Assembly (NCBI GenBank): GCA_000002435.2
Contig: CM018790.1
DNA from: Giardia intestinalis
Lineage: Eukaryota
Strand: one strand, 5' to 3'
DNA length: 64,000 nucleotides
Below the pieces are notes generated by a model, which saw nothing but the letters and a program-made list of their open reading frames with translations, ran no database searches and was not told where the DNA came from. Below are positions 58,676 through 63,957 of the stretch, one piece after another (within the stretch, counting starts at the first letter, position 1; each line of letters begins with the position of its first letter). The position numbers were made by a program, and so were the translations under genes.

Positions 58676-58969
58676 CTAGCCATGGACCTCCTCTTCTGGT
58701 TCTAGCTCCATACCGCCATCGTGATCATCGATACCCTGATCTGCAACAGCGTTGAGTATCCGCAGTATGCCGTGTATGGACTGAAGAACCTTCAAATTCT
58801 TGATGACCCCTTCCATGGAAAACGTGAGGGAAGCCTCTTGTTTGAGTACCACAGCCGCCTGCTGTTCATTCTGAGACCCCGCGGTTGCAGAGCAGATCAT
58901 ATTCTTGTAAGACTGTAGCGCCTCCGTCGCGCAGCTGTGCGCTAGGGCTACTAGAGACTCTATCTCCAT
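58676..58969 (-). CDS. Small hypothetical protein (97 aa from the ATG at 58969).
   Basis: The ORF is open to 59035, but that upstream start would collide with the divergent coiled-coil gene. I prefer MEIESLVALAHSCATEALQSYKNM... No family assigned. Confidence 0.35.
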   Translation of the reverse strand: MEIESLVALAHSCATEALQSYKNMICSATAGSQNEQQAAVVLKQEASLTFSMEGVIKNLKVLQSIHGILRILNAVADQGIDDHDGGMELEPEEEVHG

Positions 58970-59033
58970 GAGGTTCTTTTTGCCTAAGAGCAGAAAAACG
59001 GAAAGAAAAACAGAATTTTGTTTGTTAACCCCC

Positions 59034-61058
59034 ATGGCTACGTATGATCACATTATGAGCTCACTGCAGGATCACGTCGACTCCCTTACCACACTGTCTG
59101 CAAATATCACCCAAGCAGTTGCTGAAGACCCGACAATTCCCATGGATTCGTTCGAGACCGAGATTGCGCTCATTGAGACGAAGTTTCAGGCTGTCCAGCG
59201 GGCCGTGACGCAGGCTCTAGGTGGAAATAGCATGAATACAGATGAATTATGCACGTTAAACTACAAGTATATGGAGTGCAACAAGAAGTTAAAAGACATC
59301 CGAAAGTTCATAGCAGAGCACGAAAAGGAGGGACTTTTGACCACAGACAACGATGATTTAAAGGATCTTTCTCCGGAGGATCTCAACACAGGAGGACCGG
59401 AGCCTACGAAACCGTACAGACAGGTTCACATATCCGCCGCGGCCCCAGTACCAAACTTTCTTGCCCCACCAGCAACTGGCCATTCAGGTGGAGGTGCCCT
59501 AGTAATCCCTCCTCAAACGTCCCCGTCCATCGCTAAGTTGCAATCTGCTGCCTCTATTAATAAGGGGTCTTACAACTCTCTCTTGGCTGTCTCTAACATA
59601 GGTGACAAGGGAGCTAATGTCTTGCTCCCCTCTGATGGTACTGAACTGTCCATGCGTACCAGTTCACCATCTGGTGTCCTTCGTAAGAGTTCTAACCCTG
59701 AACAGTACAAAAAACACGCAGAAGAGCTTAACAGAGGCATCAATAAGCTTCGTTCAAACCTCATAGCACTCAATCGAGCAGCTAATGAGCCAGAGACAAT
59801 CACAGAGGCTCTGACGGGCGTCAATCTGCAAGACGCTCGACTGGCCAGAGATAACAAGAAGCCCGTATCTGGGTCGGAGAGCGTGGCACAAATCACGGCC
59901 AATTTACGACGAGAAAACATCTCTCTCAAGGAGGAGCTGACAACGCTGAAGACACGCACAAAGCAGCAAGAAGATGAGATAGCATCCCTCAAGAAGGCAC
60001 TCTCCACGCAAACGAAGCTATCGGAAAAGCAGTCTGATGACATAGACATCCTTCAGGCTTCACTAGATAGAGTCACAGAAGAGCGCCAGTCGTTATCTGC
60101 TACATTGAAAGAGAAAATGCGCGCACTCGGAGACCTGCGCAAACAGCTAGACACTATAAGTGATCAGAACAAGGAGTTGACCGAATTGTTGGAGGTGGAG
60201 CGCAATGATCGAAATGTGGCCATCTCAGAACTGCGCGCAGAGCTGGGTCACTATAAAGCAGAGAACGATACCCTTAAGAGTAGACTCAAGACCCTAGACG
60301 AACTAAATGTAGAAGGCAACGTGCTTGAGCTGGAGCGAGTCACTGCCGACATCGAAGACATGCAGACTATGGTTAAGCAATTGAAGAAGCAAAAGGCAGA
60401 TATGGCCAATAGATTTGCGCGTGAGAAGGAGCTTCTCCAAGAGAACATCGATGTTTTAGAAGCGCAGCTTGCCTCAGGTTACTTAGAATCGGAGAAGGGC
60501 GCTCCGTCCCACGCTGAAATCGTCATGCTGGAGCAAGAGGTGGTCAAGCGCGACATTGAAATTAAGCGTCTCCGTAATCTGGTTGCTAAGGCCATGAGTG
60601 ACAAGGATGAAGCAATGGCTCTTCTGGGTCTTGGAGCCGGTGACACTACAGACGAACGTACAGATGAGACTGACACAGACAGCGCGAGCTTTAGGATGCT
60701 TGAGCCTAGGTCCGGGTTTTCTACTGTGCCGCCTGGGCCATACCCTGTTGGCCGTCAGAGCTTTCTTTCTAGTCTACCACAGGCTCCGCCCCAGCCCCTC
60801 CAACCAGATGCGGGCAGAGCTCCCAGTACTCTTTCTATGTTACTATCCCAGAAGGCTGGCCCTTCCTTCGGTGTTTCCACGGGTCAGCTGGGACGAGTGG
60901 GTGGGTCTGAGGGGCATCCAACAGGGAGAAATGCCAGTTTACATGATGATTCCACTGTGTCCGGAGCTAACGAAATCGAGGACGATGACCTCGATGTGGC
61001 TGCTCTTGTCAGGAAGAAGCGTGATAAGAGACTATCAGTAACAAATGCCCCCAAGTGA
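59034..61058 (+). CDS. Coiled-coil protein (about 675 aa).
   Basis: I prefer the start MATYDHIMSSLQDH (59034) to the overlapping 58968. Long heptad region (LKEELTTLKTRTKQQEDEIASLKKALSTQTKLSEKQSDDIDILQASLDRVTEERQSL...), then a Pro/Gly-rich tail. The AGTGAAC poly(A) signal overlaps its TGA stop. Confidence 0.55.
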   Translation: MATYDHIMSSLQDHVDSLTTLSANITQAVAEDPTIPMDSFETEIALIETKFQAVQRAVTQALGGNSMNTDELCTLNYKYMECNKKLKDIRKFIAEHEKEGLLTTDNDDLKDLSPEDLNTGGPEPTKPYRQVHISAAAPVPNFLAPPATGHSGGGALVIPPQTSPSIAKLQSAASINKGSYNSLLAVSNIGDKGANVLLPSDGTELSMRTSSPSGVLRKSSNPEQYKKHAEELNRGINKLRSNLIALNRAANEPETITEALTGVNLQDARLARDNKKPVSGSESVAQITANLRRENISLKEELTTLKTRTKQQEDEIASLKKALSTQTKLSEKQSDDIDILQASLDRVTEERQSLSATLKEKMRALGDLRKQLDTISDQNKELTELLEVERNDRNVAISELRAELGHYKAENDTLKSRLKTLDELNVEGNVLELERVTADIEDMQTMVKQLKKQKADMANRFAREKELLQENIDVLEAQLASGYLESEKGAPSHAEIVMLEQEVVKRDIEIKRLRNLVAKAMSDKDEAMALLGLGAGDTTDERTDETDTDSASFRMLEPRSGFSTVPPGPYPVGRQSFLSSLPQAPPQPLQPDAGRAPSTLSMLLSQKAGPSFGVSTGQLGRVGGSEGHPTGRNASLHDDSTVSGANEIEDDDLDVAALVRKKRDKRLSVTNAPK

Positions 61059-61060
61059 AC
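61054..61060 (+). terminator. Putative polyadenylation signal AGTGAAC overlapping the TGA stop of the coiled-coil gene.
   Basis: ccAAGTGAACgag, with the TGA stop at 61056-61058 inside the heptamer. This is a characteristic Giardia arrangement. Confidence 0.4.
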
Positions 61061-61083
61061 GAGAACAAGCTTTGGCATGGTCA

Positions 61084-61281
61084 CTATTCTGCTGTATCCA
61101 CAGAGTTGCCACTTTGGTCTCGTAAGAGCATGACTTCTCTGATCGCAGCAGCAAGAGCTTCAGGATTTGCACCCCCTTCACAAAGAGAAAGTATGCAAGC
61201 AAGAGCGCTCCGAGACAATCCCGTCTTCAATATACTTGATATTTCCTCGATGTGGATGAGCGCGTCTGCAAGATCGGGCAT
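61084..61281 (-). CDS. MZT1: MOZART1/GIP1-like small protein (65 aa), a gamma-tubulin complex subunit.
   Basis: MPDLADALIHIEEISSILKTGLSRSALACILSLCEGGANPEALAAAIREVMLLRDQ... aligns with the MOZART1 core (human ...[44 protein letters not shown]): EIS.IL.TGL....L.....LCE.G.NPEAL...I.E. It has an ATG start and lies in a 385-bp gap, 25 bp from the upstream convergent stop and 162 bp from the next divergent start. Confidence 0.65.
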   Translation of the reverse strand: MPDLADALIHIEEISSILKTGLSRSALACILSLCEGGANPEALAAAIREVMLLRDQSGNSVDTAE

Positions 61282-61443
61282 TTTTTGGTTAAAAATCTAG
61301 GTACCCTAGCCTACTTTTCTCGTGTCAACCTTCTGTTGTGGAAGCATGCACAACCTGCTGGGATTCCTCTTCGCTTCAGTACCAGAACAAAGACATTTCC
61401 CGAACTAGCTCAAAGTCTCGATGTGGGAATTTATTAAAATTCC

Positions 61444-62442
61444 ATGGATATCACGGGCTGGTTTTGTGCAGCAGAAGCAGGAGACCTTGAACACATTAAG
61501 GAGACATGTATACAGTTTGTAGGCAAAGTCAATGAAAGAGGTCGGACAGCCTTAATGTTGGCTGCATCCTTAGGGCACAGATCCATCTGTGATTTCCTCG
61601 CTAGGTTTGAAGGCCGTCAGACAACGCCTAAAGGAGTAACTGCCCTTATGATTGCAGCGGAGTTGCAGCACATTGACATTGTGGCCGTTCTAGCGCCCTA
61701 TGAGTCAAGGATGCGCTCAGACAAGGCAGAACCAGCAATTATACGTGCTGCGCGCCATTGCTGCATGCCAGCGTTAGAGATTCTCCTACCCTACGAGATG
61801 TGCTATGCATCGGAGTGCTTGGCTGTGGCAAAAATTAATAGGTTGGAAGAGGTATATAAACGGATTGATGCTGCTCTCACAGACAACTTCACAGAGAGCC
61901 TCAGTGTACAGGCTACTTTGGCTCAGCCCATCCTCCCTCAGAACAGTCTATTACCACAATCTCAGCATCAATCCCAATGTATTCAGATGTTAGGGGTAGA
62001 TGGGGACGTGGATGCACGTGTAGATGCAACCGCAGACACAACTCTGCAGCAGGCCGATCTTATCACAACACTTACCATTGAGCTGGAGGATCTTCGTCTG
62101 GTAGAACGAGAGTATGAGGATCTAAAGCATATGTGTGAAGCATACCAAGAGCAGATCCGTGAACTGAACCTGGACAATGACACTCTATTCACTGACAACA
62201 TGTCTCTACGGCGGGACAAAGAGAAGCATCTAAGAGCCCTAAAAAGACTCGGCCCCTGTCCATCCTGCAAGAAGTCACGATCGGAATTGCAGAATCTACT
62301 GGCTGAAAACACACGGCTATCAGCAAAATTATCGACAATAAAGACAAACTCCTTGGAGGTATGGTCTAGGATTCTAATGAAGAGGGCCTTGAGCGACGAA
62401 GAAATACAGCGATTCGCCCCCTTTGCTGATTTAATTCAGTAA
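61444..62442 (+). CDS. Ankyrin-repeat + coiled-coil protein (Protein 21.1 family, short form).
   Basis: MDITGWFCAAEAGDLEHIKET, then GRTALMLAASLGHRSICDFLARFE and GVTALMIAAELQHIDIVAVLAPYE. C-terminal heptads (TIELEDLRLVEREYEDLKHMCEAYQEQIRELNLDND). Confidence 0.7.
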   Translation: MDITGWFCAAEAGDLEHIKETCIQFVGKVNERGRTALMLAASLGHRSICDFLARFEGRQTTPKGVTALMIAAELQHIDIVAVLAPYESRMRSDKAEPAIIRAARHCCMPALEILLPYEMCYASECLAVAKINRLEEVYKRIDAALTDNFTESLSVQATLAQPILPQNSLLPQSQHQSQCIQMLGVDGDVDARVDATADTTLQQADLITTLTIELEDLRLVEREYEDLKHMCEAYQEQIRELNLDNDTLFTDNMSLRRDKEKHLRALKRLGPCPSCKKSRSELQNLLAENTRLSAKLSTIKTNSLEVWSRILMKRALSDEEIQRFAPFADLIQ

Positions 62443-62502: not shown

Positions 62503-63957
62503 CTACGTCAAAGCGTTGCTTATTTCTCTCCGTAGCTTATCAATTGCCGATTCGAATTCCGTGAGTCGTACGCTTGCAAAGAAGCTCATTAACGTCTTGC
62601 ACGTGGCCATGTCTTGCTGATAAATGGCTACCTTGGCTGGATCCGAGGTCTTTTGGATGCTAGAGACATATAACTTTATAAATCTCTCCAATATCCCTCT
62701 CACACGCGTGCCTTGTATATTATACCTGAACATGTTACAGACCTCGTTAGGAACATAACGCTCTATGAACTCATTCGGGGAGATGTTCGCCATAACATAC
62801 ACATTTGTCAGGATTTCACACAGTTCTGACAGAAACTCGCTAAGAAGGTCTGCTCCCACATTATTTATTTTCCTGCTTAAATCATGGAGAGTCCGGGGCC
62901 AAAAAACTGTCATGATGACTCCGTAGATGGCGCCAAGGATTGGAAACGGTACAAAGATGCTTTCATATTTCTTGATAGGAGTAGTAACCTCCGTCAAGCC
63001 AAAATGCTTGTATATCTTGTCCTTGTGAGGGCTTCCTGTCACTTCTATAGGTTTATCAACTGTCACACCCATTGTTACACTGTGGATACCAGATCCAGCC
63101 CAGGCGATCGAGTCAACTTGTCTATGACTACGCGTGCCAATGATTTCATCGTTAAATATGGCTATCAGTGATGAACACAGCTCTTCGAGTTTTCGTAAAT
63201 TTTCCCTTGTTGTGTGTGAATAGATATAGCCATAGAGAGATTCTAGAAGAACGAACTGGGAGCCCATCAGCTGGTTGCCTAGCCTGCCATCTAGTAACTC
63301 TGCGAAAGTCCCTGGGGTCATCGGGACCTTGTTCGACTCGGCTATGGCGCCAAAAAGCCTATCTTGTCTTCTGCAAAGATCGGTAACGGAGGATACCATA
63401 TCTTGCGACGGCCCTCCATCTGTACCAACTGCAGGCCGACCCTGCGACAGAAGTACTGTGAGTGTCGGATACTCAGCAGCAGACACATTGTCTCTATATT
63501 CATAATCTGCCACAGCGCGAGTGGATGGATGGAGTACGCTGGTGTAAAGCGCCCAGATGGCATGCTCAGACCAGGTTAGATCGTTTTGTTTAACATCCTT
63601 GCTATCGCCAAAATTATTTATAATGTGTTTGATTGGTGCAACTACAGCCATGAAGAATTCATCTAGCCTTATGGTTCCGCGGAGAGAAAGGGTACTGGGA
63701 TAAATCGGCTTCAAAAACGTTGCCACCGCATTGGAATTTATCCGCAGCACATCCAATAGCTCAGAAAAATATCTATAGACCGTCACGTCGTGTCTCTTTC
63801 TGTCTATTAGAACAGCAACGTCAAAGATATATCTCAATAAGACAAGTGAGACGATGGGATCATCCTTTACCTTCAGGCACGCTTCGACTGACTTATCTAA
63901 AAGTATATGTAACTCCTTTAAAAGCTTGTCTTTGATCTGGCCCTCCGATAGCTTCAT
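62503..63957 (-). CDS. Hypothetical protein (at least 484 aa). Its N-terminus may extend beyond the window: the frame stays open upstream of the ATG at 63957 to position 64000.
   Basis: Long ORF with Giardia-like composition. No motif recognised. The frame upstream of 63957 has no stop (...AYEIRFRLDDTCNRMKLSEG). Confidence 0.45.
   Translation of the reverse strand: MKLSEGQIKDKLLKELHILLDKSVEACLKVKDDPIVSLVLLRYIFDVAVLIDRKRHDVTVYRYFSELLDVLRINSNAVATFLKPIYPSTLSLRGTIRLDEFFMAVVAPIKHIINNFGDSKDVKQNDLTWSEHAIWALYTSVLHPSTRAVADYEYRDNVSAAEYPTLTVLLSQGRPAVGTDGGPSQDMVSSVTDLCRRQDRLFGAIAESNKVPMTPGTFAELLDGRLGNQLMGSQFVLLESLYGYIYSHTTRENLRKLEELCSSLIAIFNDEIIGTRSHRQVDSIAWAGSGIHSVTMGVTVDKPIEVTGSPHKDKIYKHFGLTEVTTPIKKYESIFVPFPILGAIYGVIMTVFWPRTLHDLSRKINNVGADLLSEFLSELCEILTNVYVMANISPNEFIERYVPNEVCNMFRYNIQGTRVRGILERFIKLYVSSIQKTSDPAKVAIYQQDMATCKTLMSFFASVRLTEFESAIDKLRREISNALT

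Follow-up and report, generated by a model that had tools for sequence, protein, structure and literature searches.

MZT1 (MOZART1) is a very small partner of the gamma-tubulin complex that nucleates microtubules. In fission yeast it binds the N-terminus of GCP3 directly (Dhani et al. 2013, PMC3814152), and for Candida albicans and humans a role in the oligomerisation of the gamma-TuSC, exerted via the N-terminus of Spc98/GCP3, has been proposed. Three helices of MZT1 are interleaved with five from the N-terminal helical domain of GCP3 (Wieczorek 2020, PMC7416306), which in human GCP3 covers approximately residues 1-112, and the human MZT1 residues L28, I31, L44 and V48 are part of this interface (PMC7416306). 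Human MZT1 and the N-terminal domains of the GCPs have to be co-expressed to be soluble (PMC7416306). For Giardia, Kim and Park (2018, PMC6562232) list gamma-tubulin, GCP2 and GCP3 as the only components and do not mention MZT1; knockdown of GlGCP2 or GlGCP3 leads to faulty cytokinesis and to caudal flagella of reduced length. An orthologue from Giardia lamblia is nevertheless present in the MOZART1 alignment in Figure 1A of Dhani and co-workers (2013, PMC3814152).

The DNA analysed here (the window) is a 64-kb stretch of the Giardia intestinalis genome (assemblage A), and its minus strand carries at positions 61084-61281 a complete coding sequence of 65 codons, closed by a TAG stop at 61086-61084. 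I am highly confident that this is a bona fide single-copy MOZART1/MZT1/GIP1 gene, the helices of which most likely intercalate with the N-terminus of GCP3. As the gene is already annotated under the MOZART1 name, it is no new discovery. By a look-up of the exact sequence, the protein is present in NCBI, UniRef, ENA and EukProt (ESU36732.1, KAE8302530.1, XP_001705906.1 and UniRef100_A8BNG1) and on 181 contigs; the deposited GenBank, RefSeq and UniProt records already name it as a member of the MOZART1 family, and automatic gene calls with a PF12554 tag on the 65-aa gene are shown for 6 of 23 public contigs. An earlier note on this DNA, written from the sequence, had asked whether a gene model exists here, which these records answer, and had described the gene as hidden in an intergenic gap and likely missed by gene callers. 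That description has to be abandoned, since the protein is deposited, named, automatically called and part of the 2013 alignment. The annotated gene does contradict a strict reading of the subunit list of Kim and Park.

Reading frame, family and predicted fold

The open reading frame starts with ATG and translates into MPDLADALIHIEEISSILKTGLSRSALACILSLCEGGANPEALAAAIREVMLLRDQSGNSVDTAE (65 aa). Six codons before the ATG there is an in-frame TAG (61299-61297), which leaves the ATG at 61281 as the sole possible start and makes the N-terminus unambiguous. The pattern EIS.IL.TGL....L.....LCE.G.NPEAL...I.E fits residues 13-49 exactly, position by position, so that the earlier note's observation of a 65-aa minus-strand reading frame with a MOZART1 signature is borne out residue for residue. 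The profile comparison which it had proposed was carried out as a Pfam-A scan, and returned PF12554 (MOZART1) alone, with 51.5 bits against a gathering cutoff of 27 and an E-value of 8.6e-14. Protein residues 8-49 are placed on profile positions 4-45 (42 of 47 positions), and this core domain (61135-61260, minus strand, from the Pfam envelope) takes in the final ten residues of helix 1, the whole of helix 2 and the initial ten residues of helix 3, with both the TGL and the LCE.G.NPEAL motif inside it. As the window contains 266 ATG-initiated open reading frames of at least 40 aa, the corrected E-value is approximately 2e-11, and the match is far beyond chance.

Sequence comparisons outside Pfam give the same picture. 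In a phmmer search against all PDB chains, seven distinct MZT1/Mozart1 sequences are retrieved with E-values from 3e-7 to 6e-6, while all others have E-values above 0.04. An exhaustive HMMER search of 1.84 billion representative proteins yields 247 relatives at E<=1e-3, and the best 150 of these are mostly 50-150 aa long. In a family alignment of 50 sequences the Giardia protein carries all four invariant residues (L22, L33, G37 and P40) and also 11 of the 11 nearly invariant ones. With 65 aa it lies within the size range of a microprotein (about 60-100 aa, essentially one domain). The Pfam scan, which returned PF12554 only, contains no match to the MOZART2 profile at E<=10, and MZT2 shares only about 20% similarity with MZT1 (PMC7416306); the Giardia protein is clearly MZT1 and not MZT2.

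The best-scoring representative from outside Giardia, P0008 (186 aa), might be taken for a two-domain MOZART1. I rejected it as such, as it consists of two exact copies of one GIP/MOZART1-type sequence, joined by unrelated residues. This tandem almost certainly goes back to an ordinary homologue that was assembled or called wrongly.

An AlphaFold2 model built from the 50-sequence alignment predicts three helices (residues 2-17, 24-35 and 40-58) with a mean pLDDT of 76.6, dropping below 50 at residues 62-65. In a Foldseek comparison of this model with the PDB, 11 of 11 matches are MZT1 chains, with TM-scores of 0.67-0.85 and an rmsd of 1.0-2.4 A, save for 6l82_B at 3.9 A. They come from crystals of MZT1 with the N-terminus of GCP3 or GCP5 and from cryo-EM maps of the gamma-TuRC, and include 9qvm_Q (TM 0.85, rmsd 1.0 A), 6l7r_B (the Chaetomium GCP3 N-terminus with Mozart1) and 6l81_D (the human GCP5 N-terminus with Mozart1). 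With only about 55 residues to align in so short a protein, the E-values from Foldseek are weak (0.08-2.6), and the argument for the fold is therefore based on the TM-scores and on the fact that MZT1 chains are the only matches. With a short protein modelled as an isolated chain, I have moderate confidence that the predicted three-helix fold can be superposed on solved MZT1. Residues 11-51 of the Giardia protein align without gaps to residues 28-68 of human MZT1, by which L28, I31, L44 and V48 correspond to I11, I14, L27 and L31 in Giardia, so that all four of these interface positions, which belong to helices 1 and 2, stay hydrophobic and two of the four are identical.

Gene neighbourhood and purifying selection

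The MOZART1 gene is tightly enclosed by its neighbours. Its stop codon is separated by 25 bp (61059-61083) from that of a convergent plus-strand gene for a coiled-coil protein of 667 aa, which ends at 61058, and its ATG by 162 bp (61282-61443) from the ATG of an ankyrin-repeat gene on the plus strand (61444-62442), in which the gene calls of public contigs show Ank_2 domains; this divergent intergenic region is common to both genes. The earlier note's remark that the gene fits the local spacing agrees with these distances. The gap between the two stop codons is 25 bp in assemblage A, 25 bp in assemblage E (L009:3199-3223) and 27 bp in assemblage B (L007:3199-3225), and the coiled-coil gene measures 664-674 aa across the three assemblages. 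With stop codons 25-27 bp apart, the 3' UTRs of the MOZART1 and coiled-coil genes must overlap the coding end of the respective neighbour, and antisense transcripts could potentially arise from this pair. The Giardia-type polyadenylation signal is AGTRAAY. When assemblages A, B and E are compared, no conserved AGTRAAY motif is seen downstream of the MOZART1 stop; in assemblage A the sequence AGTGACC overlaps the stop codon, and it is kept neither in B nor in E.

Directly upstream of the ATG lies the A/T-rich element TAACCAAAAA (61291-61282), which together with the preceding in-frame TAG occupies 61282-61299 on the minus strand. While the remaining upstream region diverges, TAAYCAAAAAATG is kept in assemblages A, B and E. 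In Giardia an A/T-rich initiator drives the transcription of near-leaderless transcripts, and the conserved element resembles such an initiator, which makes it a putative transcription initiator of the MOZART1 gene.

The order of genes, namely ankyrin gene, MOZART1, coiled-coil gene, small open reading frame and pseudouridine synthase, is common to assemblages A, B and E, and a single syntenic MOZART1 locus is present in the Giardia contigs examined. For the coiled-coil gene the longest open reading frame begins at 58968 (696 aa), whereas the public calls begin at the ATG at 59055 (667 aa, MSSLQ...), and the upstream extension (58968-59055, plus strand) overlaps a called gene of 119 aa on the minus strand (58676-59035); the latter is without a Pfam domain, is predicted only, and is 119, 95 and 101 aa long in different assemblages. 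On the other side, the 484-aa minus-strand open reading frame at 62503-63957 is the C-terminal part of a gene of 1081 aa that runs past the end of the window (L001:534-3779) and is likewise without a Pfam domain.

The orthologues in the other assemblages are also 65 aa long and show 89% (assemblage E, P15) and 82% (assemblage B) identity to the window protein. Between assemblages A and B, dN/dS is 0.039, with 11, 5 and 33 differences at the first, second and third codon positions, and synonymous sites are near saturation (pS 0.73). Between A and E, dN/dS is 0.074, with 7, 2 and 20 differences, respectively. Strong purifying selection thus acts on the MOZART1 gene across the three assemblages. 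Most amino-acid differences among the three are found after residue 54, in the variable C-terminal tail (residues 55-65, at 61087-61119 on the minus strand), which the low pLDDT values suggest is probably disordered.

Within the 90% cluster, assemblage A-like isolates in Logan carry the natural variants V61A and P2L+V61A (P0002 and P0003); both positions are outside the core residues 8-49, which is consistent with relaxed constraint at the termini. Another Giardia-like MOZART1, P0006 (68 aa, on a 1401-bp Logan contig), covers 92% of the query at 82% identity, has a C-terminal tail that differs from that of the window protein, and may stem from another assemblage or species. In one Logan assembly (SRR13990249, L011:4339-4584) a TTT run inside the MOZART1 gene is shortened by a deletion of 1 bp (CTCTTTG to CTCTTG, at approximately 61181-61183 of the window). 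The resulting frameshifted product of 81 aa (P0007) reads into the frame of a 55-aa open reading frame at 61035-61202. The exact intact 65-aa protein is listed in 185 index blocks against this single assembly, and the deletion most likely reflects an error of sequencing or assembly, or else a rare null allele in a polyploid organism.

Proposed binding partner and competing explanations

The open reading frame, the family membership, the fold, the conservation of the hydrophobic interface and the purifying selection support the reading as a genuine MOZART1 gene, and the identification made in the earlier note can be upheld with very great confidence for both the reading frame and its MOZART1 identity. 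As to its role, MZT1 binds GCP3 elsewhere, the interface is conserved, and Giardia has gamma-tubulin, GCP2 and GCP3, which together make an MZT module the best-supported mechanism. By homology, the three helices of GlMZT1 and the N-terminal helical domain of GlGCP3 would form this module, which in turn could aid the recruitment and oligomerisation of a nucleator that consists of the gamma-TuSC only. Both the interaction with GlGCP3 and what GlMZT1 does in the cell are inferred.

The GlGCP3 protein (GL50803_12057) has a lysine-rich peptide at aa 121-139, used as the antigen peptide KTNKLHGKSKHKSKKSIRSC by Kim and Park (2018, PMC6562232). The approximately 120 residues before this stretch would leave room for an N-terminal MZT1-binding domain near the human size, which is only a hint. 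A 40-aa composite of morpholino, peptide and primer fragments of GlGCP3 retrieved no protein candidate, for which the sparse word index or the low complexity of the peptide may be responsible; with MOZART1 itself, word-based protein retrieval gave 6 candidates compared to the 247 obtained by exhaustive HMMER, and missed close relatives. The GlGCP3 open reading frame has, by its initial 25 bases, no exact match in the metagenome contigs scanned, and the morpholino targets of GCP3 and of GCP2 (GL50803_17429) are both absent from the 64-kb window.

The explanation closest to the preferred one accepts a true MOZART1, though one that works not with the GCP3 N-terminus but with, as candidates, the N-terminus of GCP2 or a lineage-specific cytoskeletal receptor at the ventral disc or median body. 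MZT1 is indeed promiscuous, as it binds the N-terminal domains of GCP3, GCP5 and GCP6 by similar hydrophobic contacts even though these domains are less than about 10% identical (PMC7416306), and in Giardia only GCP2 and GCP3 have been reported, MZT2 and GCP4-6 being apparently absent. Still, I consider a different partner improbable, as MZT1 binds the GCP3 N-terminus in every organism studied, the positions that face GCP3 are kept in the Giardia protein, and at least 120 residues of GlGCP3 precede the lysine-rich stretch at aa 121-139, the last point again being a hint only.

Two further explanations deny the gene its function or its existence. The open reading frame could be a conserved but silent relic, a pseudogene that is no longer expressed, and the frameshifted copy in one assembly would be in keeping with this; yet that copy comes from a single assembly against the 185 index blocks with the intact protein, the reading frame is intact and of equal length in assemblages A, B and E, and the initiator-like element is conserved. 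Moreover, a dN/dS of 0.04-0.07, with synonymous sites near-saturated between A and B, requires ongoing selection on the MOZART1 protein, and I regard a silent relic as very improbable. Finally, the reading frame could have arisen by chance, or the real gene could be one of two open reading frames that overlap it, an 81-aa frame on the plus strand (61055-61300) or the 55-aa frame on the minus strand (61035-61202). Both are present in the window; I do not accept either of them as a gene, since each is interrupted by stop codons in assemblages B and E, whereas the MOZART1 frame stays open in A, B and E alike, and it is at third positions of the MOZART1 codons that substitutions are concentrated. 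Chance is opposed by the Pfam E-value, which stays at about 2e-11 after correction for the 266 reading frames, and the probability of this last explanation is practically negligible.

The minimal nucleator of Giardia is probably the gamma-TuSC plus MZT1, as in C. albicans, and not the gamma-TuSC alone, as in budding yeast. As a find in the genome the gene itself is of little weight, since GenBank, RefSeq and UniProt name it correctly and a published MOZART1 alignment has contained it since 2013. A composition of gamma-TuSC plus MZT1 would not surprise a specialist, and what is of use here is a small gap in the literature; in the searchable literature (full text, including protein accessions) I found no functional or expression study of Giardia MZT1, and of the three papers there that name Giardia together with MOZART1, and the four that name it with MZT1, none deals with the Giardia protein. 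If the proposal is true, MZT1 would be a candidate fourth component of the Giardia nucleation machinery, overlooked in the literature that is specific to Giardia. One could go further and suppose that it is the single MZT1 which, as the key switch, converts a minimal gamma-TuSC into nucleation templates at several organising centres of very different kinds, namely the eight basal bodies, the two spindles, the median body and the ventral disc, through a lineage-specific receptor or through the N-termini of both GCPs. This extension is a speculative one, and I think it unlikely.

Comparison with known gamma-tubulin systems

Human MZT1 (6x0u_A, 9qvm, 9eoj) resembles the Giardia protein in its Pfam family, PF12554, and in its three-helix fold. 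The cores of the two proteins align without gaps at 34-39% identity, and both keep TGL, LCE.G.NPEAL and the four hydrophobic positions that contact the GCP. The Giardia protein is without the alanine-rich N-terminal extension of approximately 17 residues that is found in human MZT1, hence its 65 aa compared to 82 aa. In addition, human MZT1 serves GCP5 and GCP6 in the full gamma-TuRC, partners which have not been reported in Giardia. The microprotein MZT2/MOZART2 has an MZT1-like three-helix fold as well, and it too binds the N-terminal domain of a GCP, namely GCP2 (PMC7416306).

In plants, the small GCP3-interacting proteins GIP1 and GIP2 of Arabidopsis belong to the same family, and the top matches among the representative proteins resemble this GIP type. 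Arabidopsis possesses two GIP paralogues, while Giardia has one syntenic locus in the contigs examined.

Among the fungi, the fission yeast Mzt1/Tam4 (64 aa) has nearly the minimal length of the Giardia protein (65 aa), and direct binding of Mzt1 has been shown for the N-terminus of GCP3 in both fission yeast (Alp6) and C. albicans (Spc98). The function of yeast Mzt1 has been demonstrated genetically and biochemically; a search of the literature gave nothing comparable for Giardia MZT1. Unlike the set of proteins reported for Giardia, Schizosaccharomyces pombe has homologues of GCP4-6. The Mzt1 of C. albicans works in a system that consists of the gamma-TuSC only, and this system is the closest analogue of the composition reported for Giardia.
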